DNA from: Patescibacteria group bacterium
GTDB lineage: Bacteria > Patescibacteriota > Patescibacteriia > Patescibacteriales > BM507
DNA length: 64,000 bases
Direction: 5' to 3'
NCBI GenBank assembly: GCA_027858235.1
Contig: JAQIDC010000072.1
Coordinates: 9,499 to 73,498, forward strand
The position numbers and the translations under genes were made by a program. Below the pieces are notes generated by a model. That model saw only the letters and a list, made by a program, of their open reading frames with translations. It had not been told where the DNA came from and did not search any database. Positions 51,329-64,000 of the stretch are shown here, one piece after another (position 1 is the stretch's first letter; each line of letters opens with the position of its first letter).

Positions 51329-51470
51329 ATTAGCAATCCCCTCCTTTTATATTCTCCTCTCGAGACAAGGTGAATCGCTACCAAGCGAGAGAGAGTGCCC
51401 TGGGGTAGGAGTACCCGCCAGGGGGAGGTGTGTTAAAAATAGTGTGTAATAGTCCTGCCTTTAAATCAAT

Positions 51471-51527
51471 AAAAAAAGCGACCAAAAGTCTTATCTAAAT
51501 AAAATTTAGACAAAACTTCCAACCGCT
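51471..51527 (-). terminator. intrinsic terminator (23-bp helix + U7)
   Basis: Minus strand: GCGGUUGGAAGUUUUGUCUAAAU-UUU-AUUUAGAUAAGACUUUUGGUCGC followed by UUUUUUU. All 23 positions pair (Watson-Crick or G-U). Confidence 0.75.
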
Positions 51528-51680
51528 TTAACACTAACGTGTAAGTGATGGACAATTATTTCATTCTCGTGTCATTCTGAAGTTAATTCAGAATCCAGAA
51601 AATAATATTCAGTAAAAGGTGCGACTTGCCCCGCTTTGCGGGAAGAAATAAGTGTGCGGCATAACCGCAGGGGAACTTAT
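51471..51680 (-). ncRNA. candidate ~210-nt non-coding RNA or attenuating leader (unclassified)
   Basis: Bounded by a near-consensus promoter and a very strong terminator. Contains only tiny ORFs without RBS. Several local hairpins: AUAAGU..ACUUAU enclosing UGCGG/CCGCA; CCCGC-AAA-GCGGG; AUUCUGAA-UUAAC-UUCAGAAU. The 5' end is estimated from the -10 box. Confidence 0.5.
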
Positions 51681-51686
51681 AATACC

Positions 51687-51714
51687 ATTATAACACAAAT
51701 ATAGCGTTTGTCAA
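51687..51714 (-). promoter_or_regulatory. sigma70-type promoter with extended -10
   Basis: Minus strand: TTGACA-16 nt-TGtTATAAT. The -35 box sits inside the palindrome TGTCAAcaTTGACA. Confidence 0.6.
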
Positions 51715-51739
51715 TGTTGACAGGATTTTTTTCTTTAAA

Positions 51740-51839
51740 AAAAGATGAAATCTAGATTTATCCCGTTAAATTATTTCCATTTAACTGGTATTCATACCGT
51801 GAAACCCTTTTTGTTTAACTGGTACCTGATCCCAATTAC
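51740..51839 (-). repeat. cassette repeat copy 1
   Basis: Plus strand: ...AGATTTATCCCGTTAAATTATTTCCATTTAACTGGTATTCATACCGTGAAACCCTTTTTGTTTAACTGGTACCTGATCCCAATTAC. Ends 2 nt before the stop codon at 51842. Shares extra flanks (AAAAAGATGAAATCT / AATTAC) with copy 2. Confidence 0.9.
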
Positions 51840-51841
51840 TT

Positions 51842-52678
51842 TTATTTCTTAGTTAACACCAAAACATCTTGATCCATTTCTTCCCCTTCCTGGACTTCTT
51901 TATTTAGAAGCCCCTTCCAATCTCCTAAATATATCTCAAACCCGTGAGCTTCGGCTAATTCTTTTATTTTATCAGCTGAATGATAATATTTAACAGTTTC
52001 GGCTCCCTCAAGATATCCCGAGTTTGGCTCACCAGAAATTTTGAAAAGTTTAACAGTAAAATTATCGCCATCTTTTAAGATCTTTATCTTATTATCGGAA
52101 AACAGCTCACCGTTATATAGATATCTGGCATTGGTTGAATAGCTTTTTAGTTCTGGGCTTAAATTCCCCATCGTAGCTACCAATTTTCCTTTTTGTTTTA
52201 ATTTTTTTGATAATAATTCAAACAAGGCATCAAGATTGTCTAAATGATCAATAGTGTATTTCATGATGCTGATATCAAGCTTCTCATCATCCAGTACACG
52301 CAAATATTCTAAAATATCACTTTTTATAAAGCTTGTCACTTCTTTGCGCTTTTCATATTCTTCTGTTTCCAAATACTTCTTAGCCAATTCAAGCATATAG
52401 GAAGATACATCCACCCAGTCAATGTGACCTCTGGGTTCGTTCAGTAGCTTGGCAAAAAATTCATGATATCTGTCCGGATGAGCACCTCCGCCCAGCTCAG
52501 CTGAATATACAGGTCTATCTAACTCTTTCGTTTCTTGCATTATTATCCCATCAACAATTTGAGCTACTCTAAAATTTTTGTCGTTCTGTTCAAGCTCAGC
52601 AAATTTTTCTGCTATCTCGGGAGAGAAATACATACCTAGCCCTTCTTTTTTATTTTGATTTATTTTTTCTTGATTCAT
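51842..52678 (-). CDS. class I SAM-dependent methyltransferase (cassette A)
   Basis: 'VYSAELGGGAHPDRY' (motif I, ExGxGxG-like) and 'IDWVDVSSYMLELAK' (motif II). Confidence 0.65.
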   Translation of the reverse strand: MNQEKINQNKKEGLGMYFSPEIAEKFAELEQNDKNFRVAQIVDGIIMQETKELDRPVYSAELGGGAHPDRYHEFFAKLLNEPRGHIDWVDVSSYMLELAKKYLETEEYEKRKEVTSFIKSDILEYLRVLDDEKLDISIMKYTIDHLDNLDALFELLSKKLKQKGKLVATMGNLSPELKSYSTNARYLYNGELFSDNKIKILKDGDNFTVKLFKISGEPNSGYLEGAETVKYYHSADKIKELAEAHGFEIYLGDWKGLLNKEVQEGEEMDQDVLVLTKK

Positions 52679-52705
52679 ATCTTTATTTTTAATATTTTTT
52701 TTATG

Positions 52706-52806
52706 AAAAAGATGAAATCTAGATTTATCCCGTTAAATTATTTCCATTTAACTGGTATTCATACCGTGAAACCCTTTTTGTTTAACTGGTACCTGACCCC
52801 AATTAC
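52706..52806 (-). repeat. cassette repeat copy 2
   Basis: Near-identical to copy 1, including the extended flanks. Lies 6 nt after the stop at 52813 and 27 nt before the start at 52678. Confidence 0.9.
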
Positions 52807-52812
52807 CTTCAA

Positions 52813-53679
52813 TTAACTCTTCATATCATTTTCCAGTTGATTCTCCCAGTTTGGAATAATTTTTTTCATTTTCTTTTGCCAATCTGGTGGAATGCTAGCA
52901 TGACGGATAAACAGAAGCTGCGGATCTGGAATTGAATACATAACATCATAAAAAGCCGTTGTCCCTGATCCCGCTACTCCATTGCTTGATTTCCATTTTC
53001 CGAGTTCTGACAAATCCTTATTTGTATAATTGCAAATAGCTAGATTTGTCATTCCTTCATTAAATCTTTTCAGGACATAAAGAGATATGGCTGCCAACTT
53101 TTTTGCTGAATTTTTGTAAACATTGAATGGAACGAGTCGAAAATACCAATTAAGAATATAATGAGCAATTGAGTCAACATTCTGATCTCTTGCATCTTTT
53201 TCCATCTCATCAGTAATTCCTTGTTTTTTAAGTATTTTTTCAATCTCAATAATTCTTTTATTTGACTCTTCTTCAATATTCACTAAATACTTATCAATTT
53301 CTATATGAGCACTATAAAGAAGCTCGACAAAGGCCTTATAGTCAGTTGGTTGTTTCATTCTACACTCATGTTTTGACAAATCAACACCATACAAGAAACG
53401 AGAAACGGGCTCACCGTTTGGCATTATGTTTACATAGTAACTTGAAAAAACCTGGAAATCCCTCACGTAAGGGTTTAAATCATCATAAACCTTTAAAGCA
53501 CCTTTAGCAAATATTTTTTTAACACTATCAAGAAAAGCTTTTTCTGATATTTGAATATCAGTAAACATTAACAACCTCTCAATATCATTAATATCTTTTT
53601 CATCCAAAGCAAAACTACTCGCTGTCTTGCAAAACCTATTCCTTGCGGAACTATATAATTTTTTTAATATTATTTCCAT
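52813..53679 (-). CDS. hypothetical protein (cassette B)
   Basis: 288-aa ORF filling the interval between copies 3 and 2. No motif recognised. Confidence 0.5.
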   Translation of the reverse strand: MEIILKKLYSSARNRFCKTASSFALDEKDINDIERLLMFTDIQISEKAFLDSVKKIFAKGALKVYDDLNPYVRDFQVFSSYYVNIMPNGEPVSRFLYGVDLSKHECRMKQPTDYKAFVELLYSAHIEIDKYLVNIEEESNKRIIEIEKILKKQGITDEMEKDARDQNVDSIAHYILNWYFRLVPFNVYKNSAKKLAAISLYVLKRFNEGMTNLAICNYTNKDLSELGKWKSSNGVAGSGTTAFYDVMYSIPDPQLLFIRHASIPPDWQKKMKKIIPNWENQLENDMKS

Positions 53680-53726
53680 AAGACATATATCTTAATTTAA
53701 TTTATATATTATTTAAACAAAAAACA

Positions 53727-53840
53727 AGATTTATCCCGTTAAATTATTTCCATTTAACTGGTATTCATACCGTGAAACCCTCTTTGTTTAACTGGTATTC
53801 ATACCGTGAAACCCTCTTTGTTTAACTGGTACCTGACCCC
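53727..53840 (-). repeat. cassette repeat copy 3 (with internal 34-nt tandem duplication)
   Basis: Same unit, but AACTGGTATTCATACCGTGAAACCCTCTTTGTTT occurs twice. This gives three TTTAACTGG half-sites at 53753, 53787 and 53821, 34 nt apart. Confidence 0.9.
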
Positions 53841-53925
53841 CACTAGCTTTTCAGCTAATATTCAGATATTTTAAATATTCTAATTGACTTATAATAAAAA
53901 TATGTAATATTATAAGTATCAAGAT

Positions 53926-53969
53926 AAAAGGGTCGCTGAAGCTGTGAGGCAGATGGCCCCCTTTTTTTT
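53926..53969. terminator. GC-rich hairpin flanked by A-run and T8 (bidirectional terminator shape)
   Basis: AAAA-GGGTCGCTGAAGCTGTGAGGCAGATGGCCCCC-TTTTTTTT. The T8 is on the plus strand and a T4 on the minus strand. Confidence 0.45.
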
Positions 53970-54010
53970 ATTCTCTTTTAATCTTATTTTTTAAATTCAA
54001 AATTCAAGAT

Positions 54011-54364
54011 TTATTTAATTTCTTTTTTAAACATTTCTCTTACTAAGTTATCAAAGTCTTTATTTTTCTTCCATATAATTTTCATTTTATCATATGTTTT
54101 ATCAAAACCCATATATGGTTTAAATTCTTCTGTTCCTTTGTATTTAGCTATTTCTCTCCAATATTTTTCATTCTCCAAAAGCAAATTAAACGCCTCAGTG
54201 AATTCCCAAAATAGCCGGTCATTATCATGGCATTCTTTTGGTTCTAACTTATATTTCTTCTCAAGATAGTCATAAGTAATAAAATGTAACATTTCATGAG
54301 CAATAACAATATTAGAAGAACCCGGTTTATTTATTGGAAATGAAAACTCTTTTTCTTCTATCAT
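54011..54364 (-). CDS. HExxH zinc-metallopeptidase-like protein, probably 5'-truncated
   Basis: 'IVIAHEMLHFITYD' HExxH motif. The reading frame stays open for 42 codons upstream of the ATG without any start codon. Confidence 0.45.
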   Translation of the reverse strand: MIEEKEFSFPINKPGSSNIVIAHEMLHFITYDYLEKKYKLEPKECHDNDRLFWEFTEAFNLLLENEKYWREIAKYKGTEEFKPYMGFDKTYDKMKIIWKKNKDFDNLVREMFKKEIK

Positions 54365-54531
54365 TCTTGGATAAACTTCTAGAATAGAAGCACTCCCCGT
54401 ATATTCACCTTCTGGCCAATCATAACCTTTGAATATTCTATCTACTTCTTTTAGGAAACTACCCTCTACTTCCTTCCATCTCTCGTTGGCTTCATTTAAC
54501 TTTAGCTCAAAGCTATCGTTGTTTTTTTTAT

Positions 54532-54708
54532 ACTAATCAAATATAAAATTTTTCGCCTCCTTTTCAATTTTCTCTTTTTCTTTATACTTTTCTAGATATT
54601 TCAAATCAGAAAGAATAGCCCTGTTGTCCTCCTCTAAAAAAGAAAGAAAAAATCCTAAATCATCTTCCTTGTTTAAAACTAAATTTAATTTTGGTTTTTT
54701 ATTAGTCA
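54532..54708 (-). CDS. small ORF (58 aa), possibly the detached N-terminus of the HExxH gene
   Basis: Not in the track. MTNKKPKLNLVLNKEDDLGFFLSFLEEDNRAILSDLKYLEKYKEKEKIEKEAKNFIFD*. Ends at a TAG, in a different frame from 54011..54364. Confidence 0.3.
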
Positions 54709-54748
54709 TATTAAAGATTACTTTTTATAAAAGTCTTTCAATGCAAGA

Positions 54749-54846
54749 AACAAGATTTGACCACGTTAATCTGTTAAAAAAGGATAAAAGCTAGACCTCG
54801 TATATTAACTTTTAAAAGCCTGAAAAATGGATCAAAACCCTTTTAC
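54749..54846 (-). repeat. decayed copy of the cassette repeat
   Basis: AAACAAGATTTGACCACGTTAAT...TCAAAACCCTTTTACTA retains the two ends of the unit (AAACAAGATTTATCCCGTTAAAT...GAAACCCTCTTTG). It sits exactly at the 3' end of ORF 54846..55472. Confidence 0.4.
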
Positions 54847-55472
54847 TACAATTCTTCATTAGTTTTAAACCACCAATCAAACTCATCGGAATATTTTTTG
54901 ACATTCCTATTGAACCAATCTGACATTTTAAAAGCATCAAGTGCCCCTGGGAAACTATTTTTAGCTTGAAATGGTCTACTCCACTTATCTTCATCTAATC
55001 CGAGTCGAATAGCTAGAATATAATGCCTAATGCCTTGATTATCCAAAGGGTTTGCTCTCAAAAGTTTTCTAAATATAAACAAAGCCTGTTCAGTCTTCCC
55101 TTTTCGCCAGCATAAAAATCCATAGGCTTCAATGACTCTCATAAGATGACGATTTTCCAAATAACCCCAACGCAATTCTTTTGGCCAATTTCCATCTTTA
55201 TCAACTATTTTCATTAATGCTTTTGTATAAGCAGCCTGTAACAGCTCATCCGCCTCCTCTACCCTATTACTATGAGACAATATATCAGCCAAGCTGATAT
55301 AAGAATCAAAAAAATATTCATCCACCTCAATAAGTCTTCTCAACTCAATCTCCACTTCATTATCAGACATTTCGCTCTCGTAAATATCGTAAAAATCATC
55401 CATTACTTCATGGTGATTATCATCAACAAATTCTTTTAGTTGTTTTTTTCGCAATGAATTTTTGATTTCCAT
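54846..55472 (-). CDS. hypothetical helical-repeat (TPR-like) protein
   Basis: 208 aa. Segments such as 'EQALFIFRKLLRANPLDNQGIRHYILAI' look TPR-like. No catalytic motif. Confidence 0.5.
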   Translation of the reverse strand: MEIKNSLRKKQLKEFVDDNHHEVMDDFYDIYESEMSDNEVEIELRRLIEVDEYFFDSYISLADILSHSNRVEEADELLQAAYTKALMKIVDKDGNWPKELRWGYLENRHLMRVIEAYGFLCWRKGKTEQALFIFRKLLRANPLDNQGIRHYILAIRLGLDEDKWSRPFQAKNSFPGALDAFKMSDWFNRNVKKYSDEFDWWFKTNEEL

Positions 55473-55799
55473 AGTTTTCTAAATTATTTTTTATACAAAA
55501 TTTATTTAAATACAAAACTTTAATTTAAAGTTCGAGACTTGCTCCGATTATAGTCAATAATTTCACCAAAAATAATCTCAGCACAGCCAGAACCTAATTT
55601 GAATATAAGGTGAAGAAGGTGCATTGCGGATGCAAATGAGGCCGGCCTGGGTCGTACGGAAGCAGAGAGGGTGCTCTGGGGTGCTTTTCGGACATTTCTG
55701 TCCTCAATTTTTCTCCTTGTTATATATTTTTTAATCTATATTATAATCATGGTTATAATATAGATTACTTTTTATTGAAATTTACTTATTCAAAAAACA

Positions 55800-55879
55800 A
55801 GATTTATCCCGTTAAATTATTTCCATTTAACTGGTATTCATACCGTGAAACCCTCTTTGTTTAACTGGTACCTGACCCC
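55800..55879 (-). repeat. cassette repeat copy 4
   Basis: AGATTTATCCCGTTAAATTATTTCCATTTAACTGGTATTCATACCGTGAAACCCTCTTTGTTTAACTGGTACCTGACCCC. Confidence 0.9.
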
Positions 55880-55880
55880 A

Positions 55881-56041
55881 GGAGTCACTTGCGTCTTGAG
55901 TTGTTTAATAAAAGCACGTTCCAGTTCTGCTTCGCTTTAACAAGAAACACTATCCTGAACTCGGTCTGCATGTCTTCGGTATTCAGCGACAACTGTGCTG
56001 TGAGAATTTTCCGCAACTAGATTGTATTTATTGTATGACAT
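55881..56041 (-). pseudogene. hsdR: 5' remnant of a type I restriction enzyme R-subunit gene (hsdR), cut off at repeat copy 4
   Basis: Minus-strand translation: MSYNKYNLVAENSHSTVVAEYRRHADRVQDSVSC*SEAELERAFIKQLKTQ.. This matches the HsdR N-terminus pattern (...ESNNFIVLDKY........YQSE.DLER..I..L..QGY). It has an in-frame TAA where YQ is expected, and the homology ends at the repeat. Confidence 0.6.
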
Positions 56042-56078
56042 ATTTCATAAATTTTATAATTACATTACATCACATTTT

Positions 56079-56957
56079 CTAATCTTCTTCTTCATAATAA
56101 TAAGAGTAGTCTATTCCTTTCATAAACATTTCACGATTGTTAATTTTACTAGTAAGAGCATTTTTAAATAAATTTTTTATTTTTATACTATTTTTGGAGC
56201 TATGTGTCATTGCATTTATATAATCTTTTTTGCCTATTTTACTCCACTCCACACATTTTTTAAGGCTTTTTTTCAATATTAAATCAAGCCAAATACGAGT
56301 ACTTCTTCCATTGCCTTCCATGAAGGGATGAGCGACATTCATTTCTACATATTTATCGGCAATTTGTTCAAAATTATTTTCAGGCATTTGTTCAATTTGT
56401 TTAAGCGTGTTTTCTAAATATTGTGCCATCGCAAATTGAAAACCATTTTTTGAAATATTTTTCTGTCGTATTTTTCCTGCAAAATTATACAAACCGCCAA
56501 ATAAATAAGCATGAATTTGTTGCAAGCCCTTGGTTGTGCCGATTTCAATGCTATTAATAAGAGAACTTTCAAACAAGGCATAAGCTTTTGTTTTACTTTT
56601 TCCATCGATACTCTCATCACCATGAATAAACCAGTCAATAAATCGGTTAGCTTTAGTCCCGGGGAATGTTTTACCTAGGGCAATAATCCCGTCATAGTCT
56701 AACGTATCAGTTAAATATCGTTTCCCATCACTTGCCAAAAGTTTCAGTTGGGTAGTAGCACTAACCACCTGACTGTTCTCTTTCTTGAGCTTGGCTTTGA
56801 GATATTTCCAATAATTGCGGGCTTTGGCGTAGTCGTCTTGATCAGTGAGAACGGCGATGATGTCTAACACACTAAACCACCATTTATTATTTTTTTCATC
56901 CCAAACGGCACGAACTTCTCGATCGTCAAAGAAACGAATTGAAATTTTATGATTCAT
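56079..56957 (-). CDS. Bro-N-like DNA-binding domain fused to a Fic (AMPylase-type) domain
   Basis: N-terminal '[31 protein letters not shown]' (Bro-N/antirepressor-like). C-terminal '[14 protein letters not shown]' = Fic motif HPFx(D/E)GNGRxxR. Confidence 0.8.
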
Positions 56958-56993
56958 ATTTTTTAAAAGTTAATAATTTTACCTCGATAATAT

Positions 56994-57254
56994 TCATATT
57001 GCTTCTTTCTCATAGCAAGCCCTGCATTTAACTGACTTTTCAATAGAACTTCGGTGTCCTATTGGTAACACCCAAAAAAAACCATCAATCGAACCCCATG
57101 CTTCCGCTGGCATTTCGTAATCTATTTCTGCACTTAGAGGCTCAAAATCGATACAAAAAGTTTGGATCCGTTCTCCTTCACTTGTATAATGCGCTGGCAT
57201 TTTTCTTCTAGCCGTATAAACAAGGTGAAGTGTTTTCCTTAAAATTTCATTCAT
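56994..57254 (-). CDS. hypothetical 86-aa protein downstream of the AbrB-like gene (toxin candidate by position only)
   Basis: ORF starts 35 nt after the AbrB-like stop. No motif recognised. Confidence 0.4.
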   Translation of the reverse strand: MNEILRKTLHLVYTARRKMPAHYTSEGERIQTFCIDFEPLSAEIDYEMPAEAWGSIDGFFWVLPIGHRSSIEKSVKCRACYEKEAI

Positions 57255-57289
57255 AATATTTTTATAAATAATCCTTTGGTGTCATATTT

Positions 57290-57448
57290 TTATTTCCAAT
57301 CCTCAATAATTATCTTCTTCCCACTCCGACGTATTGTTAATTTTTGTCTTTCCCTTATTTTCAACTCGGAAACAATATCAGCAGGGATAACAACAGACAA
57401 ACTCCTCTGCCCAACACGAGTAACTTTTCTAATATATTTTTTTATCAT
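57290..57448 (-). CDS. AbrB/MazE/SpoVT-type DNA-binding protein (antitoxin-like)
   Basis: Not in the track (52 aa): MIKKYIRKVTRVGQRSLSVVIPADIVSELKIRERQKLTIRRSGKKIIIEDWK. 'VGQRSLSVVIPADIV..L.I' is the swapped-hairpin barrel signature. The plus-strand ORF 57276..57485 is its antisense artefact. Confidence 0.7.
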   Translation of the reverse strand: MIKKYIRKVTRVGQRSLSVVIPADIVSELKIRERQKLTIRRSGKKIIIEDWK

Positions 57449-57457
57449 ATTTTTCTT

Positions 57458-57481
57458 GTTACGTAACATGCTACGTAACAG
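57458..57481 (-). promoter_or_regulatory. operator-like paired palindromes just upstream of the AbrB-like gene
   Basis: GTTACGTAAC (57458..57467, perfect palindrome) and CTACGTAACAG (57471..57481), 10-33 nt upstream of the start codon. Confidence 0.4.
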
Positions 57482-57601
57482 ATAATTTCAAATTATTTTT
57501 TCACTATATAATACTTGGTAATCTATCTATACTATACTCTTAATTCACAATTCCGGATCCAAATCACCCTATCAACTACCTCTTTAAAAACTTATTCCAT
57601 G

Positions 57602-57949
57602 TCACCGTTTCTTTAAATAACCATCAATTCTCCCTCTATCTTCATTCTCTTTATCCCCTTTAAAATACACTTCAATAAATTCAATACTTATTAACTCAAA
57701 ACGACTACAATCCTTATTACAAGAGTATATAATTCGTAGGGAGCTCTTTTTTAAGCTTTTAGAAAACAGTCTTGCCTTAATTATTAGCAAGTCATCAGTT
57801 TTGGTTAAAATATTGGAATGTCTTCCATTGCCGAAAGGAAATTTTTTTAAAATATCTTTAAACAATTCAATATCATCTTTCAGAGTTTTAAATTTCTTTG
57901 AAAGTTTTTTAAAGTCTTTTTCAAATTCTTTTGTGCAACTATAATTCAT
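57602..57949 (-). CDS. small toxin candidate (RelE/ParE-superfamily-like) paired with the Panacea antitoxin
   Basis: 115 aa, overlapping the upstream antitoxin gene by 11 nt. The 'FEKDFKKLSKKFKTLKDDIELFKDIL' N-terminus and beta-rich C-half are reminiscent of RelE/YafQ-type toxins. The assignment is weak. Confidence 0.4.
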   Translation of the reverse strand: MNYSCTKEFEKDFKKLSKKFKTLKDDIELFKDILKKFPFGNGRHSNILTKTDDLLIIKARLFSKSLKKSSLRIIYSCNKDCSRFELISIEFIEVYFKGDKENEDRGRIDGYLKKR

Positions 57950-58712
57950 CCTCGTAATTTCTTACGGAATGATCATTGTCGCGATAAAAGACAGATTCAT
58001 ATCGAATCTTCTCACCATCTTCATGTATCATCCATGGTGTATCAGTATGTGAATAAGCACTTAACTCTTTGGCAGATTTGCCTGCAAGACGAGATAAAAC
58101 ATCATCGATATGTGATGTCTCCTGAGCTGACAAATTCTTTAAGTTGGCGGACTTTAAGGGTAGATATTTTTTTTGCTCGTACTGAAAATGTTTTGACTTT
58201 ATCATTTCTAGTTCACCATCTTTCTGCATTTTATCAACTATTTTTTTAAACTCCACTGGCGTTGGACCGTAATGATTTTTTATATAAGTTGCGCCCATTA
58301 AGTTTTCTTCAAACTTCTCGTAATAATCAAAATCAATAAAATATAGAAGTTTGTAAACAACTGTCTCTCCAACGTTTGGTTTTGCTCCAACTTTCTCTAA
58401 TATATAAAGTAGAACTTGTTTAAACTTTTTCAAATCCTTCTCCTCAACACGAATCTCAATATCTTTGTTAGATTTCTTCTTTTTACTCTCTATTATTTTA
58501 ACTTTTACAGATTCTTCCCTGTTGGCTAAAAGATCCTGTAAGCTCATCCCAAAAAGTCTAGACAATTTCTCCGCTTCAGATATCCTGAGTTCAGTCTCAC
58601 CATTCTCAATCTTTTCATAGGTTGGTCGAGAGACTCCAATTTTCTCTGCAACAAAAGACTGGCTAAAGCCATTCTTTTTTCTTAACTTTTGGACAAGTAG
58701 ATGCTTAATCAT
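57939..58712 (-). CDS. XRE-family HTH + Panacea (DUF4065/SocA-like) domain antitoxin
   Basis: 'LRKKNGFSQSFVAEKIGVSRPTYEKIENGE' HTH_XRE. 'VVYKLLYFIDFDYYEKFEENLMGATYIKNHYGPTPVEF' DUF4065 core. Confidence 0.8.
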   Translation of the reverse strand: MIKHLLVQKLRKKNGFSQSFVAEKIGVSRPTYEKIENGETELRISEAEKLSRLFGMSLQDLLANREESVKVKIIESKKKKSNKDIEIRVEEKDLKKFKQVLLYILEKVGAKPNVGETVVYKLLYFIDFDYYEKFEENLMGATYIKNHYGPTPVEFKKIVDKMQKDGELEMIKSKHFQYEQKKYLPLKSANLKNLSAQETSHIDDVLSRLAGKSAKELSAYSHTDTPWMIHEDGEKIRYESVFYRDNDHSVRNYEDEL

Positions 58713-58740
58713 AAATTTAAACTATTTTTCCTATGACAAT

Positions 58741-58769
58741 ATTATACATAATGTAAAATATTTTGTCAA
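58741..58769 (-). promoter_or_regulatory. consensus sigma70 promoter of the Panacea TA operon
   Basis: Minus strand: TTGACA-17 nt-TATAAT (rc of 58764..58769 and 58741..58746), ~30 nt upstream of the start at 58712. Confidence 0.6.
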
Positions 58770-58929
58770 TATCAATGTAATATTTATTTACATATTAACC
58801 TATCAACATTAGAAAATTATTAAACCCTATTTTTCTTGATTGCTCAACCTCATCAGAGATTTTCTACCTCCTCATAAATATTTAAACTACAGCTAGTTTA
58901 TCTATATTATAATCACAATTCACAATTTA

Positions 58930-59009
58930 AGATTTATACCGTTAAATTATTTCCATTTAACTGGTATTCATACCGTGAAACCCTCTTTGTTTAACTGGTA
59001 CCTGTCCCC
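58930..59009 (-). repeat. cassette repeat copy 5
   Basis: AGATTTATACCGTTAAAT...GTTTAACTGGTACCTGTCCCC. Followed by a C10-T8 homopolymer junction running into the methyltransferase stop codon at 59022. Confidence 0.9.
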
Positions 59010-59021
59010 CCCCCCTTTTTT

Positions 59022-60269
59022 TTATATAAAATCTCTTAATGCTTCTCCTATTTTTTTCACAACCCCAACAACAAGAGCATTCCCCATAATATAGGCTCTC
59101 TTCGTGTCTGGGACACCTTCTGTGTGGTTATCTGGAAACATATTTAATCTCTCTAATTCTATCGGAAGTAATCTTCGTAAACGTCCATTTTTTATTTTAA
59201 TTACATGCTTAAATCTTGAAGGGGATGACCCTCCTTCTCCTGTAACAATTGTTCGAGATGCGTTATTCAAATTATCAGGAAAAATCATTCCACCTTCAGA
59301 ATAGTTATACTCAAAACCATCTTTTGTTTTTCTATTTTCAGTTTTCCCATTTTTTAAATATTTCCAACGCTCAAGGGTGTTTTTCTTAATAAAAAACTCT
59401 TCTGGCACCTCTTTATCATTCACAAGAACGTCTTTTAACATAATCTTTTTACCATCATACTTTGAAGTTACTTTTTTTGTATAAATTTTACTATTAATCA
59501 TTATCCCTGCGTTATGGAAAGGACTAATTTTTGGAGAATCGCTAGAAAAATCCCTTGAAACAATAGCAGGGTCTGCATCTAGAGTAAAAAAATCAACTTC
59601 AACATCATCCTTATTAACAGGGAAACCAGATGCTATTATGCCTTTTGAATTTATCCATTCTTTAGGATTTGTATTTTTAGCTTCTTTATATGCAGTGGTT
59701 CCTTTTTTGTAGGCTAAAATAAAAACTCGTCTTCTTCGTTGAGGAAAACCATATTCTGCTGCATTAATTATTCTCCATTCTACAATGTACCCCAAAGAAG
59801 CTAAAGATGAAAGCATTACTGCAAAGTCTCGTCCTCTTTGTTTAGTTGGAGATTTAAGAAGTCTATCAACATTCTCTAACAATAAAAAATTAGGTGAGTT
59901 TTTACCACTTTTTTTCAAAATATTAAAAATAGACCACCACAAAACACCCTTTTTACCAACTAAACCGTTTGCCTGATTTGCTGTACGTGCAACAGAATAA
60001 TCCTGGCAAGGAAAACCACCGACCAATAAATCGTGTTGTGGTATTGTCTTAAATTTGCTTTTTACAACAAGCTGAATATCTTCACAAGAGTGACCCTCTG
60101 TACCAAAACGTTCTTTATATATATCTGAAGCATGCTGAGTCTTTGTGCTTGGCTCCCATTGGCTATTCCAAACAGTTTGATATTTAATTTTCTTATTACT
60201 TGCTTGGTCAAGGCCTATTCTAAAGCCTCCAACTCCCGCAAATAATTCAACTACTTTTATTGTTTTCAT
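59022..60269 (-). CDS. DNA (cytosine-5) methyltransferase, M.Sau3AI-like
   Basis: Motif I 'ELFAGVGGF', motif IV 'GGFPCQDYS', motif VI 'LLENVDRLL', motif VIII 'QRRRRVFIL', motif X 'GNALVVGV'. Confidence 0.9.
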   Translation of the reverse strand: MKTIKVVELFAGVGGFRIGLDQASNKKIKYQTVWNSQWEPSTKTQHASDIYKERFGTEGHSCEDIQLVVKSKFKTIPQHDLLVGGFPCQDYSVARTANQANGLVGKKGVLWWSIFNILKKSGKNSPNFLLLENVDRLLKSPTKQRGRDFAVMLSSLASLGYIVEWRIINAAEYGFPQRRRRVFILAYKKGTTAYKEAKNTNPKEWINSKGIIASGFPVNKDDVEVDFFTLDADPAIVSRDFSSDSPKISPFHNAGIMINSKIYTKKVTSKYDGKKIMLKDVLVNDKEVPEEFFIKKNTLERWKYLKNGKTENRKTKDGFEYNYSEGGMIFPDNLNNASRTIVTGEGGSSPSRFKHVIKIKNGRLRRLLPIELERLNMFPDNHTEGVPDTKRAYIMGNALVVGVVKKIGEALRDFI

Positions 60270-60326
60270 ATTTTAAAAATTACTATCTATATAATAGCAA
60301 AATTATCAATTTTGATCAAATTTTAA

Positions 60327-61736
60327 CTAACTTATATTTTCTAACACTTTTTGAATATATTTTGCATTCAACCAAAAAGATTTTTTCATCTCTTGCGTTC
60401 CTTGGGGTGTTTCAGCGGTATCCCTAGAATCTTTTCCATGTGGGCGCACATGTGCCACGTCATTATCACTAATCTTTGGTAAGTCCTCATATCGGTCTTC
60501 ATTTATACAATCAATTGTTTTATTCCAGACATCCTCTGCTTCAGACATGTCTTCTATGGGAAAATTCCAAAACAAAAATTTCTTGAATACAATTTCTTCA
60601 CTGCCCTTTTGTTTTTGAAATACAGCAAATAAAAATCGCTTTGTTTCTAGTTGCGCGTGAAATTCACTCATTTCCTCCTCTTCTTCGTCATACCAAACTT
60701 GCGTTACTAAATCCTTATAGTCAAAAGCAGGGAACGACAATGATTCTGTAAGTACTCCAGTGTGTTCCAAGGTAATTGCCTTAAGTGTAATATTCGCTTT
60801 TTCTAACTCTTCAATCCTATTTGATTTAACTCCAAGCATTCTGTTTACCAATAATCGTTTCCATTGTTTTGGTTCTTTCTTAAGATCCCATTTTACAGCT
60901 TTCTTTATTTCGGTATCAGTTTTTCCAATGAATTGTGCAAATTTTTCTTTCACAACGTCTTCAACAGTAGCCAGCCGTCGCTTTTTTTTAAAGATTGACT
61001 CAGTGCTAATATCTTTTCCAAGCAACTCTTTTTGGATTAAGAAATTAAGATATTGTTGTTTAAAAGAAAAAGCTCTTGGCTTAGCAGGTGTCCTCGCCAT
61101 AGGCTGGTCGCGCACAACTCTACTATTTGCAGCTTTCGTGCAAGCTCCCAAGTAATATGTATCTCCTTCAGACAATAAATGTGCCTCTCCTCGTTTTATT
61201 TTTCCAACAATATATTCCCAGTCTTTTTGTATTTGGTAAATATCTTCCTCGGAAATATCATCGAGTAAATCAAGTAAATGCACAAACTTAAATTTATAGT
61301 CTAGGATGTCTTGCTCTTTAAGCCACAGATAGAACATTAACAAAAGAACTTTGTTCTTCTTGAGAAATGAGCTTGTCTCCCACGATTCATTAATCACCTC
61401 ATCATAGTTAATCATTGAAAAAACAAGTCTTTCCTTTGAAACATATTTTTTCACCGCATGCGCTTTGAGTGGGTTTGTCTTTAATTCTATTCCCGCAATT
61501 TTGAAATCTGCCTCTGCTCTATTATTAACATCCAAACCAAATACAAACTCTTCCACCAACTCACCGAGAAGACCCTTTCTTCGGCTTCCATATTTCAAAA
61601 GTCTTTGCTCAATTTCTTCTAGGTCAACTCCATCGTCAGACATTACTGAACGCAAAGATCGCCCAAGAATTTTTTGAGCTTCGGTAAGTACTGATTCTTT
61701 TGTGGTGTATGTTTTAGTCATTATTACTCTTTCCAT
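60327..61736 (-). CDS. Sau3AI/MutH-family type II restriction endonuclease
   Basis: MutH-type catalytic block 'EADFKIAGIELKTNPLK' (D...E.K), 'SKERLVFSMINYDEV', 'EAHLLSEGDTYYLGACTKAAN', and a C-terminal 'HVRPHGKDSRDT'. Length ~470 aa, as for two-domain Sau3AI. Confidence 0.8.
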   Translation of the reverse strand: MERVIMTKTYTTKESVLTEAQKILGRSLRSVMSDDGVDLEEIEQRLLKYGSRRKGLLGELVEEFVFGLDVNNRAEADFKIAGIELKTNPLKAHAVKKYVSKERLVFSMINYDEVINESWETSSFLKKNKVLLLMFYLWLKEQDILDYKFKFVHLLDLLDDISEEDIYQIQKDWEYIVGKIKRGEAHLLSEGDTYYLGACTKAANSRVVRDQPMARTPAKPRAFSFKQQYLNFLIQKELLGKDISTESIFKKKRRLATVEDVVKEKFAQFIGKTDTEIKKAVKWDLKKEPKQWKRLLVNRMLGVKSNRIEELEKANITLKAITLEHTGVLTESLSFPAFDYKDLVTQVWYDEEEEEMSEFHAQLETKRFLFAVFQKQKGSEEIVFKKFLFWNFPIEDMSEAEDVWNKTIDCINEDRYEDLPKISDNDVAHVRPHGKDSRDTAETPQGTQEMKKSFWLNAKYIQKVLENIS

Positions 61737-63460
61737 TTTTTAATAATCTCTTCAAACTGAACTTCTTTCCATTTTTCTTTCCATTTTTCTAAATATTTCA
61801 CATCATTTGATGATGGCTGTCTGTCTTCATCACATTTTTCTATTTTAACCAAAGAAGGCATTATAATTGATTCTCCAAGTAAAAGACCCTCGCCAGATTG
61901 TAATGACGGCAAATTATCAATCAAATTTCCAAGTGTGTCAGGCAACAATCTTTTCACATAATTTTGATCGGTTGGATTTGTTAGCCTCATGGCAATGAAA
62001 TTATTACATTGAGAAAAAATAGTTTCTGATATTTCAGATGGTCTTTGGCTCACAATTCCTAGTGTTACTCCATATTTTCTTCCTTCTTTAGCTATTCTTT
62101 CAATAGCATTTCTAGATGCTCTAAATTTTGCAGAATCATTTTTGGGCACATACTTATGCGCTTCCTCATACACAAGCAATAATGGAGTTTCTAAATCAAT
62201 ACCATCATTTAAATATTTTTTATAGAAATATCCATAATCGAACAGTATTCTTGAGATTAAAGAAACTGTAATACTAAGAACTTCAAAAGGAACCCCACTT
62301 AGATCAATGACTGTTACATTCGATTTATTGGCATCTTTATATCCAATAAATTGTTTAATAGCATTTTCAAAAGAAATACTTTTTGAATTATTCCCTAATA
62401 AAAATTCAAATCTCTTGTCATTTAATTTATTTTCTAATCTACTTACAAAATTTGTTAATTGTCCGTACAAACTTCCTTGCACTGTTTTTGGCTGACCTTT
62501 TTTGACACCAGAGGCATATACCTCCCCTGTATCAATAGTTTCATTATTTTTATTTTGAGCAAACTCCAAAACTTTTTGAATATCAAATGGAACAGGAGAA
62601 TCATAATGGATTTTCTCCTTTCTGTTGCTAAATGCTTCATCGCTTTCATCTTTTTCCGATATTAAGCCGTCTTTTTTATTAATTACGATCGATTCCTTAA
62701 AAACATTTTTTTGATTGTGGTCGTTAGCTTCTGTATCAATAAAAAGTTCTTCTAATTCTTCACTATTAAGCAACCAGTAAGGCAGGGTCAGATTGTTAAT
62801 ATTCAAAAAATTAGCCTCTGGGAAAGCTGTTTTGTATTCATTGTGAATATCAAATACGACAATATGAGAGTTATTTAATTCAAATTCACCATTTTTCTCT
62901 GCGATAGCTTTTTGTATAATTTTAGCGATCGTATGTGATTTTCCTGAACCGCTGGATCCGACAATTGCGAAATGCTTATTAAAAAATTTATTTCCATTTA
63001 CTGGAACCTCAATATTTCCATCTTGAACTAATTTTGCAAATAAGAATTTCTCTTCTGGCTTAAATCCATTTTCATAAATTAATTTTATATTAGCCTCACT
63101 TGCTGGCTTAACTTCTGTAGGGGGGATAGTTAAAGCATCACCACCTCTTACAAATTTTTCATCAGTAATCGTACCAAGCGGGCTGGCTTCAAGAACATAA
63201 GCATTGTAGACCTCTTTTACCTTGCTTCCTTGACCATCTTCAACGACTCTTTCTTTAAGTTCTATTTGGTAACTTTCAATAATAGCAATAAGCACGCACC
63301 CGTCATTGTCAGAAATTTCAAGATAAGACCCAATTTTTAGATCTCCAAGAGCATCATCTATACTATCTTTAAAAGCCGTCAAATTTTCGACTTCGATTTT
63401 TACTTTGTTAGGATAAACAGAAGTTACAAAGGCTAATTTTTCATCTGTAGAATTTGGCAT
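61724..63460 (-). CDS. herA: HerA-like (DUF87) hexameric ATPase
   Basis: N-terminal HAS-barrel-like segment. Walker A 'IVGSSGSGKSHT', Walker B 'LLLVYEEAHKYVP', and 'RKYGVTLGIVSQRPSEISETIFSQCNNFIAMRL'. The stop overlaps the endonuclease start by 13 nt. Confidence 0.85.
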   Translation of the reverse strand: MPNSTDEKLAFVTSVYPNKVKIEVENLTAFKDSIDDALGDLKIGSYLEISDNDGCVLIAIIESYQIELKERVVEDGQGSKVKEVYNAYVLEASPLGTITDEKFVRGGDALTIPPTEVKPASEANIKLIYENGFKPEEKFLFAKLVQDGNIEVPVNGNKFFNKHFAIVGSSGSGKSHTIAKIIQKAIAEKNGEFELNNSHIVVFDIHNEYKTAFPEANFLNINNLTLPYWLLNSEELEELFIDTEANDHNQKNVFKESIVINKKDGLISEKDESDEAFSNRKEKIHYDSPVPFDIQKVLEFAQNKNNETIDTGEVYASGVKKGQPKTVQGSLYGQLTNFVSRLENKLNDKRFEFLLGNNSKSISFENAIKQFIGYKDANKSNVTVIDLSGVPFEVLSITVSLISRILFDYGYFYKKYLNDGIDLETPLLLVYEEAHKYVPKNDSAKFRASRNAIERIAKEGRKYGVTLGIVSQRPSEISETIFSQCNNFIAMRLTNPTDQNYVKRLLPDTLGNLIDNLPSLQSGEGLLLGESIIMPSLVKIEKCDEDRQPSSNDVKYLEKWKEKWKEVQFEEIIKKWKE

Positions 63461-63470
63461 AATGTTGGGG

Positions 63471-64000
63471 TTAAAGAATAAATTTTATATCTGATATGTT
63501 TTTTATTTGTATCTCTACATTTTTTATATTTGGTTGATTCGTAATACTTTCACTTATAAAAAACTGATAGATTTCTTTCGGTTTTGCGAAACTCTCACTT
63601 ATCAAGCTATTTAATATATCTTCATTATTAACTAGTTTTAAGCAAAGATTATTATGTATTGTAGAATCTTCTTTTATAGAGACTAAAGAAAAAGGAGCGC
63701 CAGAAAAATCAAAACCATCCTTAAAAATAATTTTCTCATCTAATAACTCCTTTTTTAATTGTATTAGGTTTTCTTCAGAGATACCTTTTAAGAATATATA
63801 CGGTGCAGGAGATTTTATTCTCTCAAATTTCCATGTTCCTGACTTATTATAGAATTTATCTTTAATTTTAAAAATAACTTCTTTTATCTCTGCGATACCT
63901 TCATTTCCACATAACTCGACTATCAAAAATCGTTCAATATAATCTATATTTCTATTGGAAAAATGTTGTTTTTTAATAAACTTGAAATAACCCTCATCTC
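63471..64000 (-). CDS. C-terminal part of the HerA partner protein (5' end outside the window)
   Basis: The frame is open from 63471 to the window edge; the 'M' at 63926 in the track is only a TTG inside the open frame. Stop lies 10 nt before the herA start. No motif recognised in the visible ~176 aa. Confidence 0.6.
   Translation of the reverse strand, partial: DEGYFKFIKKQHFSNRNIDYIERFLIVELCGNEGIAEIKEVIFKIKDKFYNKSGTWKFERIKSPAPYIFLKGISEENLIQLKKELLDEKIIFKDGFDFSGAPFSLVSIKEDSTIHNNLCLKLVNNEDILNSLISESFAKPKEIYQFFISESITNQPNIKNVEIQIKNISDIKFIL

Follow-up and report, generated by a model that had tools for sequence, protein, structure and literature searches.

We examined a window of 64,000 nucleotides from a Patescibacteria group bacterium (assembly GCA_027858235.1, contig JAQIDC010000072.1), whose high-coordinate end carries most of a string of co-directional genes. 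The complete string has five members in the order radC, DUF4297, herA, a Sau3AI-family nuclease gene and a C5 cytosine DNA methyltransferase (M.C5) gene, and the window region holds its distal four-fifths. We read the string, with a probability of roughly 0.8, as two independent known defence systems, where the DUF4297-HerA pair is cargo in a recurrent slot of a RadC-led restriction-modification (R-M) operon. In evidence are two systems that can each be identified as complete and that occur independently, a slot whose content varies, and cargo that has been exchanged and deleted. The first-pass annotation of this region, made from the window alone, had left two options, and the one that joined two known defence systems in one gene string was essentially right, the two being DUF4297-HerA and a Sau3AI-family R-M system.

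Both systems were already known. What is new is their arrangement, a RadC-led type II R-M operon with an exchangeable defence slot in Patescibacteria. No description of it was found in the literature searched, and an earlier description elsewhere is possible. The locus illustrates, in compact form, the organisation and trading of defence genes in these ultra-small bacteria. To our knowledge, Patescibacteria mostly lack CRISPR and are hard to study; new defence genes might be sought in them by looking at what lies between radC and the nuclease gene. RadC, whose function has long been disputed, gains a reproducible genomic partner.

Two complete systems in one gene string

The window's own contig, a 96-kb metagenome contig of the Joint Genome Institute, was recovered by an exact-protein look-up of HerA. 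It is named L001 here, as L-numbers denote the retrieved loci, and a window position equals 73461 minus the L001 position. To judge from the names that its closest homologues bear, the source lies in Patescibacteria, near Candidatus Magasanikbacteria. Four co-directional minus-strand open reading frames (ORFs) had been recognised in the window, and their coordinates were borne out, with their families backed by Pfam, PADLOC and NCBIfam. The outermost ORF, which had no nameable motif, was followed past position 64000 and searched with profile hidden Markov models, as had been proposed. It proved to be a standard DUF4297 protein of 397 aa, encoded at L001:8797-9990 and reaching out to window-equivalent position 64664. 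The start of the operon had been missed: its first gene is radC (217 aa, L001:8147-8800), which lies one gene farther upstream, outside the window, and overlaps the DUF4297 gene by 4 nt.

The full DUF4297 protein covers positions 8-404 of 404 in the PADLOC DUF4297 model PDLC02187 (E 1.8e-53), and the 176 codons inside the window were enough to match positions 233-404 (E 4.7e-36). Residues 14-396, the full length, align with PDB chain 8xav_G (E 6.7e-20), where IQDID...IQVK faces IEDVD...IQCK. The protein thus has the family layout from end to end, an N-terminal PD-(D/E)xK-type nuclease domain and a C-terminal domain. As candidates for this partner, SIR2, NurA, TIR and Cap4 were rejected; Pfam was blank on it, and PADLOC and PDB give DUF4297. 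HerA matched Pfam DUF87 (E 1.8e-34), the DUF4297-type HerA model PDLC02188 of PADLOC (E 2.5e-243) and, over residues 10-577, PDB chain 8xau_A (E 3.7e-178); its translation contains Walker A (GSSGSGKS) and Walker B (LLLVYEE) motifs. The two genes are adjacent and co-directional, with DUF4297 upstream, and the partner's stop codon lies 10 nt ahead of the herA ATG, as had been noted before. Scores fell below the NCBIfam equivalog cutoffs (210 bits versus 300 for DUF4297_antiphage, 814 versus 850 for NF042944 HerA_antiphage_2), which we read as divergence rather than non-membership because both alignments are full length. Judged by these matches, the pair represents a canonical, already-described system.

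The closest known counterpart is the DUF4297-HerA system of E. coli (cryo-electron microscopy structures 8xau-8xay), a complex of about 1 MDa with double-stranded DNA nuclease and ATPase activities that protects against phages (An et al. 2024, PMC11291478). As there, DUF4297 lies directly upstream of HerA in a two-gene unit, the solved structures and PADLOC models are matched over their full length, Walker A and B are present, and the D...QxK residues align. Unlike the E. coli pair, the window proteins are divergent, as the E value against the 8xav chain and the NCBIfam scores indicate, and the pair is not free-standing but inserted between radC and the gene of a restriction nuclease. HerA-NurA and SIR2-HerA systems also combine a hexameric FtsK/HerA-type ATPase with an effector encoded beside it. 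In contrast to them, the window partner is DUF4297, with no NurA or SIR2 match in Pfam or PADLOC, and, of the HerA types, the DUF4297 type gives the window HerA by far its best scores.

The nuclease matched Pfam MutH (E 4.3e-25), PADLOC REase_II (E 1.4e-72) and NCBIfam NF040973 restrict_Sau3AI, the last with 417 bits against a cutoff of 300 and with residues 5-460 lying on positions 1-474 of 475. The Sau3AI model is spanned end to end and there is no extra domain. Residues 48-428 align with the Sau3AI structure 4pxg, and the C-terminal domain matches 2reu and 7xm0, giving an N-terminal catalytic MutH-like domain followed by a second domain of Sau3AI type. The motif D-x6-E-L-K (ADFKIAGIELK) aligns with PDMAEAGVALK of Sau3AI. 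Here, the solved chain has A where the window has E, presumably an engineered active-site mutation. The methyltransferase matched Pfam DNA_methylase (E 5.7e-62), PADLOC MTase_II (E 7.8e-166) and TIGR00675 dcm, and the motifs FAGVGG, PCQ, ENV, QRRRR and GNA are visible in it. A homologue of this gene follows the nuclease gene in every related locus long enough to show it. By these family matches the two genes form a complete Sau3AI-family R-M pair, like R.Sau3AI (4pxg) and its C5 methyltransferase in the full-length match above cutoff, the alignment of both Sau3AI domains, the D-x6-E-x-K motif and the adjacent methyltransferase gene. The ratio of observed to expected GATC in the window is 0.62, the second most depleted among 16 palindromic tetranucleotides, which is consistent with GATC restriction but not proof of it.

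RadC scored 228 bits against a cutoff of 180 for NF000642, with both the Pfam UPF0758_N and RadC (JAB) domains matched and the JAMM motif HNHPSGDTEPSKDD intact (HNHPSG...S..D). Published context analyses have proposed a nuclease or DNA-processing role for RadC and noted its fusions to anti-restriction modules (PMC3239186, PMC5512222). Nothing relevant on RadC linked to Sau3AI or to defence in the candidate phyla radiation was found in the literature searched; one candidate source, PMC516771, was dropped, as RadC is absent from its main text.

A recurrent frame with a variable slot

The outer genes form an operon of their own. In nuclease-centred and RadC-centred surveys we detected RadC-Sau3AI-M.C5 in 18 distinct loci. 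The common arrangement among metagenome contigs in the nuclease-centred survey is RadC directly followed by Sau3AI-M.C5, without HerA (L065, L066, L069, L072, L075-77, L089 and L091, among others). All five RadC-centred look-ups reach the R-M pair, four directly and one if two contig ends of the same assembly are taken to be joined. Of the best 120 RadC homologues, at least 24 share longest-contig size with one of the best 120 nuclease homologues, and the identities of RadC and nuclease to the window are correlated (r = 0.87). The genes that flank the triple vary between loci and include those for a serine recombinase, zeta toxin, sigma factors and GltX. RadC-Sau3AI-M.C5 is a lineage-typical R-M operon in Patescibacteria. 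It differs from the Sau3AI systems of the Firmicutes plasmids examined, where the restriction and dcm genes are convergent or divergent and RadC is lacking; at the present locus and in other Patescibacteria, radC comes first, all genes point the same way, and a variable slot separates radC from the nuclease gene.

The inner pair also has a wide distribution of its own. Among 52 genome loci with HerA relatives of 26-77% identity, DUF4297 lies directly upstream in 49. No Sau3AI-like gene was found in the flanks of these 52 loci, 45 of which have at least 1.9 kb of downstream sequence, and a general association of HerA with Sau3AI (0/52) is thereby ruled out. The same holds for RadC as a general partner of DUF4297-HerA, for any RadC match was present in only two of the 52 loci and adjacent in neither. 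DUF4297-HerA and the R-M frame each occur alone many times.

The complete order RadC-DUF4297-HerA-Sau3AI-M.C5 was found in four genomic contexts, all from Patescibacteria: the window (L001), L057, L058 and L079-L082. The first-pass annotation had held that a standard partner, together with a HerA-Sau3AI adjacency unique to this genome, would mean simple juxtaposition. The answer is divided: the partner is indeed standard, whereas a survey of HerA neighbourhoods, which had also been proposed, shows the adjacency in other genomes too. The flanking genes of the four contexts differ. On the Candidatus Magasanikbacteria chromosome (L057) the block stands between a PBP gene and the HU and RNase Y genes, and in L079-L082 it adjoins a Y1 transposase gene. 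Protein identity to the window in these contexts is 61-96%. Another close HerA relative (L061) has nothing comparable downstream and no nuclease.

In L059 and L060 the DUF4297-HerA pair lies behind a different R-M system, and the HerA of L059 is 88% identical to that of the window. Here (L059:29-7350, and likewise L060) RadC is fused to a D12-class N6-adenine methyltransferase in a protein of 603 aa; next come genes for an AlwI-like enzyme and an N6/N4 methyltransferase, with DUF4297-HerA behind them. The same cargo is carried here by a second type of RadC-led R-M, and the fusion ties RadC to R-M.

If the frame and the pair exist separately, then we can ask: what lies between radC and the nuclease gene elsewhere? 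In nine of the 18 frames the distance is 3-55 nt and the slot is empty. In three frames it is 140-455 nt, filled by short remnants or small ORFs, and in six it is 2.7-4.0 kb and holds whole defence systems. The six large fillings are DUF4297-HerA (four), a full-length PDC-S53 helicase gene (L070, PADLOC E = 0) and a complete Gabija system (L087, GajA 5.8e-190, GajB 1.1e-191). All slot cargo is inserted with almost no intergenic DNA.

Two contigs of assembly GCA_034660175.1 probably add one more type of cargo. The end of one (L085:5571-9230) carries vsr, radC, a gene for a 254-aa protein and a HamB-like helicase gene (E 5e-42), with vsr ahead of radC and the other two genes behind it. The start of the other (L083:1-3305) carries a gene for a 148-aa protein, then Sau3AI and M.C5. 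They are probably one locus split by an assembly gap, with Hachiman-like cargo in the slot. The 148-aa ORF was tried as the C-terminus of the HamB-like gene and rejected, and the join is only probable because stop codons precede that ORF in frame.

Cargo has also been lost from the slot. Compared with L070:3246-5978, the 140-nt gap of L063 (L063:581-721) keeps only ~38 nt from the start and ~60 nt from the end of the PDC-S53 gene, which meet at a short AAATAAAAC-like direct repeat. This gap is the scar of a PDC-S53 deletion. A homologous stretch of ~450 nt occurs in the slot or upstream of the nuclease gene in three other loci (L068:466-921, L062:1-360, L064:1-151); in L068 it takes the form of a small, frameshifted ORF (~150 aa), and it may be another small or decaying cargo.

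Evidence of exchange came from a sliding nucleotide comparison of the window block with L079. Identity is 76-84% in radC and rises to 95-100% from the last ~150 nt of this gene across DUF4297 and herA, one herA segment excepted, then falls to ~80% in the nuclease gene and 59-79% in the methyltransferase gene. These steps coincide with the borders of the slot. The pair behaves as exchangeable cargo because its DNA is 95-100% identical between the two loci versus about 60-85% in the flanking genes, and it was exchanged recently as a unit between diverged frames, which we suppose occurred by recombination through the conserved flanking genes. Since one identity step lies at the herA/nuclease border, DUF4297-HerA and the nuclease have separate histories.

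The exceptional herA segment spans window positions ~62330-62920 (HerA residues ~181-375) and L079:5778-6360. HerA residues 1-180 and 375-578 are 97-99% identical between the two loci, and the helical insertion that separates Walker A from Walker B has diverged strongly and carries indels. This pattern suggests local recombination or diversifying selection.

Positions where defence systems replace each other within a conserved frame are familiar as defence hotspots, such as the variable loci of P2 prophages and P4-like satellites and hotspot 5 of SXT integrative and conjugative elements. The slot resembles them in offering one such position and in the apparent recombination through its flanks. 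Unlike them, its frame is not a phage, a satellite or an integrative and conjugative element but an R-M operon of three genes, its hosts are Patescibacteria, and its cargo is inserted with almost no space between genes. A defence gene embedded in another system is also seen in BrxU inside a BREX island (PMC12707154).

Proposed function and alternative explanations

Because of their family membership, the outer genes are expected to cut unmethylated GATC while the methyltransferase guards host DNA. If the inner pair behaves like its E. coli homologue (PMC11291478), it would form a nuclease-ATPase complex that degrades DNA and aborts infection. The two would most likely act as independent layers, in which DUF4297-HerA backs up a first line of R-M by killing the infected cell. 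All five genes could probably be co-transcribed from upstream of radC, since they leave hardly any intergenic space and a terminator scan of the region found no credible terminator within the block. The methyltransferase may also have its own candidate promoter in the 57-nt spacer that separates it from the nuclease gene (Table 1), where a promoter-like site was found; such sites are not enriched in the region (34 found versus 29 expected in the promoter scan).

Several points weigh against this interpretation of cargo in an R-M operon. Cargo would first have had to enter a gap of only 2-50 nt. Co-transcription, GATC specificity and the independence of the two systems are all deduced from sequence. 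The strict NCBIfam cutoffs were missed, narrowly by HerA and clearly by DUF4297. The 18 frames come from the best-ranked matches, a small sample whose frequencies are rough. Finally, the five-gene order has been kept through substantial divergence between contexts, and the close HerA relatives of L059 and L060 stand beside another RadC-led R-M, of AlwI-like type. Because of this persistence and of the L059/L060 arrangement, the cargo may have some selective or functional link to RadC-led R-M.

The status of RadC can be questioned, for it is a full-length canonical protein by NF000642 and the Sau3AI systems of Firmicutes plasmids do without it. A housekeeping radC might then mark an integration hotspot where the R-M pair and other systems were inserted independently, with RadC outside the R-M unit. 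We consider this unlikely. The genes around the RadC-R-M triple differ completely between loci, RadC and the nuclease have diverged in parallel, and the RadC of L059 is fused to an R-M methyltransferase. L058 even has a second RadC paralogue, 46% identical, 2.2 kb upstream of the radC of the block, and the gene ahead of radC in L085 is vsr, a usual companion of C5 methyltransferases. About equally doubtful is the opposite view, where RadC is a working R-M component and RadC-Sau3AI-M.C5 a dedicated docking and expression platform for second-line defence, its cargo (DUF4297-HerA, Gabija, PDC-S53 and the Hachiman-like system) being tied to restriction in a PrrC-like manner. If true, it would give a lead on the trigger of DUF4297-HerA.

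A coupling of this kind can also be imagined as a guard, with the cargo wired to the R-M system or to RadC, held back as long as restriction succeeds and set free once a phage blocks or evades it. PrrC offers a precedent, as it sits inside the EcoprrI type IC R-M locus and is activated when phage Stp inhibits EcoPrrI (PMC12707154). The trigger of DUF4297-HerA is not known, and since the complex is constitutively active and toxic in vitro (PMC11291478) it needs restraint. The tight splicing of the cargo into the operon, and the presence of the same HerA clade beside two different types of RadC-led R-M, would also fit. However, DUF4297-HerA works in E. coli as a two-gene operon, it occurs in 49 of the 52 genome loci without a Sau3AI R-M nearby, and neither the nuclease nor HerA has an added interaction domain. 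Four unrelated systems fit into the slot, which points to an effect of position and not to one particular pairing of proteins. The window resembles the EcoprrI locus in encoding a second defence function within an R-M cluster, but PrrC is physically and functionally controlled by the R-M enzyme and nothing at the present locus points to such coupling; moreover, the host system here is of type II and the embedded cargo varies between genomes. We rate a guard as slightly less likely than either view of RadC.

Very improbable, finally, is the other option of the first-pass annotation, a new single system where a HerA motor would supply the MutH-type nuclease with DNA and DUF4297 would be the third part. 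Tight packing of the genes, the recurrence of the adjacency in four contexts and the pairing of HerA with nucleases elsewhere (NurA, DUF4297) speak in its favour. Such a machine is nevertheless unsupported, because the partner directly upstream of HerA is already its canonical one, a standard DUF4297, and the nuclease is an ordinary full-length Sau3AI-family enzyme without an extra domain and usually without a HerA neighbour. Both modules are often found alone, Gabija or PDC-S53 takes the same place elsewhere, and the identity step at the herA/nuclease border points to an exchange of DUF4297-HerA apart from its flanks. Two known systems, one of them cargo in a slot of the other, remain the preferred explanation.

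Gene packing, the repeat array and the neighbourhood

Table 1. Coordinates of the block and of adjoining features in the window
Feature	Positions	Strand	Remarks
DUF4297 gene, 3′ part	63471..64000	-	176 codons inside the window; ORF open at the edge
herA	61724..63460	-	578 aa; HerA hexameric ATPase of the DUF4297-HerA anti-phage system (predicted)
Sau3AI-family nuclease gene	60327..61721	-	Predicted type II restriction endonuclease, 464 aa from ATG 61721
Promoter-like site	60291..60319	-	L001:13142-13170; TTGATC, 17 nt, TATTAT, with TG before it; contains GATC; consensus match alone
C5 cytosine DNA methyltransferase gene	59022..60269	-	415 aa; predicted modification partner of the nuclease
Copy of the ~80-nt repeat	58901..59023	-	Abuts the methyltransferase stop codon; adjoins the five-gene block, not part of it

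An overlap of 13 nt between herA and the nuclease gene had been reported in the first-pass annotation. It exists if ATG 61736 is the start (469 aa), but the nuclease N-terminus ATGACTAAAACATACAC (MTKTY...) is kept in 16 of 16 related loci compared, and its equivalent in the window is ATG 61721, which lies 2 nt past the herA stop codon and removes the overlap. The reported overlap was thus probably produced by the ORF calling, and with either start the genes remain tightly packed.

The same annotation had described the block as one large cassette that ends in a repeat. A conserved core of ~80 nt does lie directly past the methyltransferase stop codon; the block is not bracketed by it, however, because on the window's own contig no copy exists in the 14.5 kb upstream, and with the repeat at the 3′ side alone the term cassette is unsupported. 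The repeat is absent from all other loci that carry the block and from viral contigs, which rules it out as a part of the mobile block. It is a feature of the downstream array of this genome and not a block boundary.

This array comprises five loci within 51.7-59.0 kb on the minus strand (51725-59023), with copies at 51725, 52692, 53698/53732, 55771 and 58901. The element is near-invariant over ~80 nt (GGGGTCAGGTACCAGTTAAAC...ATACCAGTTAAATGGAAATAATTTAACGGGATAAATCT) and holds two direct TACCAGTTAAA motifs and one inverted; copy 3 has an internal duplication of 34 nt. Each copy directly follows a gene or small gene set. Besides the methyltransferase of the block, these are a methyltransferase-like gene, the gene of a 288-aa protein, those of a 117-aa protein and a TPR protein, and a set made up of Fic/Bro, an 86-aa ORF, a 115-aa ORF and HTH-Panacea. 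The repeat is also where other assemblies of this sequence break. No Rfam match was obtained at E <= 1, and the RNA fold is no better than that of shuffles (z = -1.5), so a known RNA was rejected; the DNA hairpin is modestly better (z = -3.0). An integron-like reading is unsupported too: the neighbours examined include no integrase, and the arms stand in the order GTTAAAT...ATTTAAC, the reverse of that of attC (R''...R').

The last copy lies ~400 nt upstream of ftsK. The intergenic sequence between them (51329-51725, minus strand) is relatively GC-rich by eye and contains self-complementary segments, for example CCCCTGCGG...CCGCAAAGCGGGG; it had no Rfam match at E <= 1.

The HTH gene with a SocA/Panacea antitoxin-like domain (257 aa) overlaps the 115-aa ORF, which belongs to no known family, and the two (57602-58712, minus strand) look like a toxin-antitoxin pair. 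A perfect TTGACA-17-TATAAT promoter-like site precedes them at ~58742-58770 on the same strand. L091 has a similar HTH-Panacea pair, 1.8 kb downstream of its R-M genes.

On the whole, the block sits in a defence-island-like neighbourhood. Downstream of it, a Bro-N/Fic fusion is encoded at window positions 56079-56957. Upstream of the window end, L001:4084-7655 carries genes for RhuM (PDC-S05), a Bro-N protein (PDC-S13) and Fic (PDC-S04). RhuM, with 43% identity, also precedes radC in L057.

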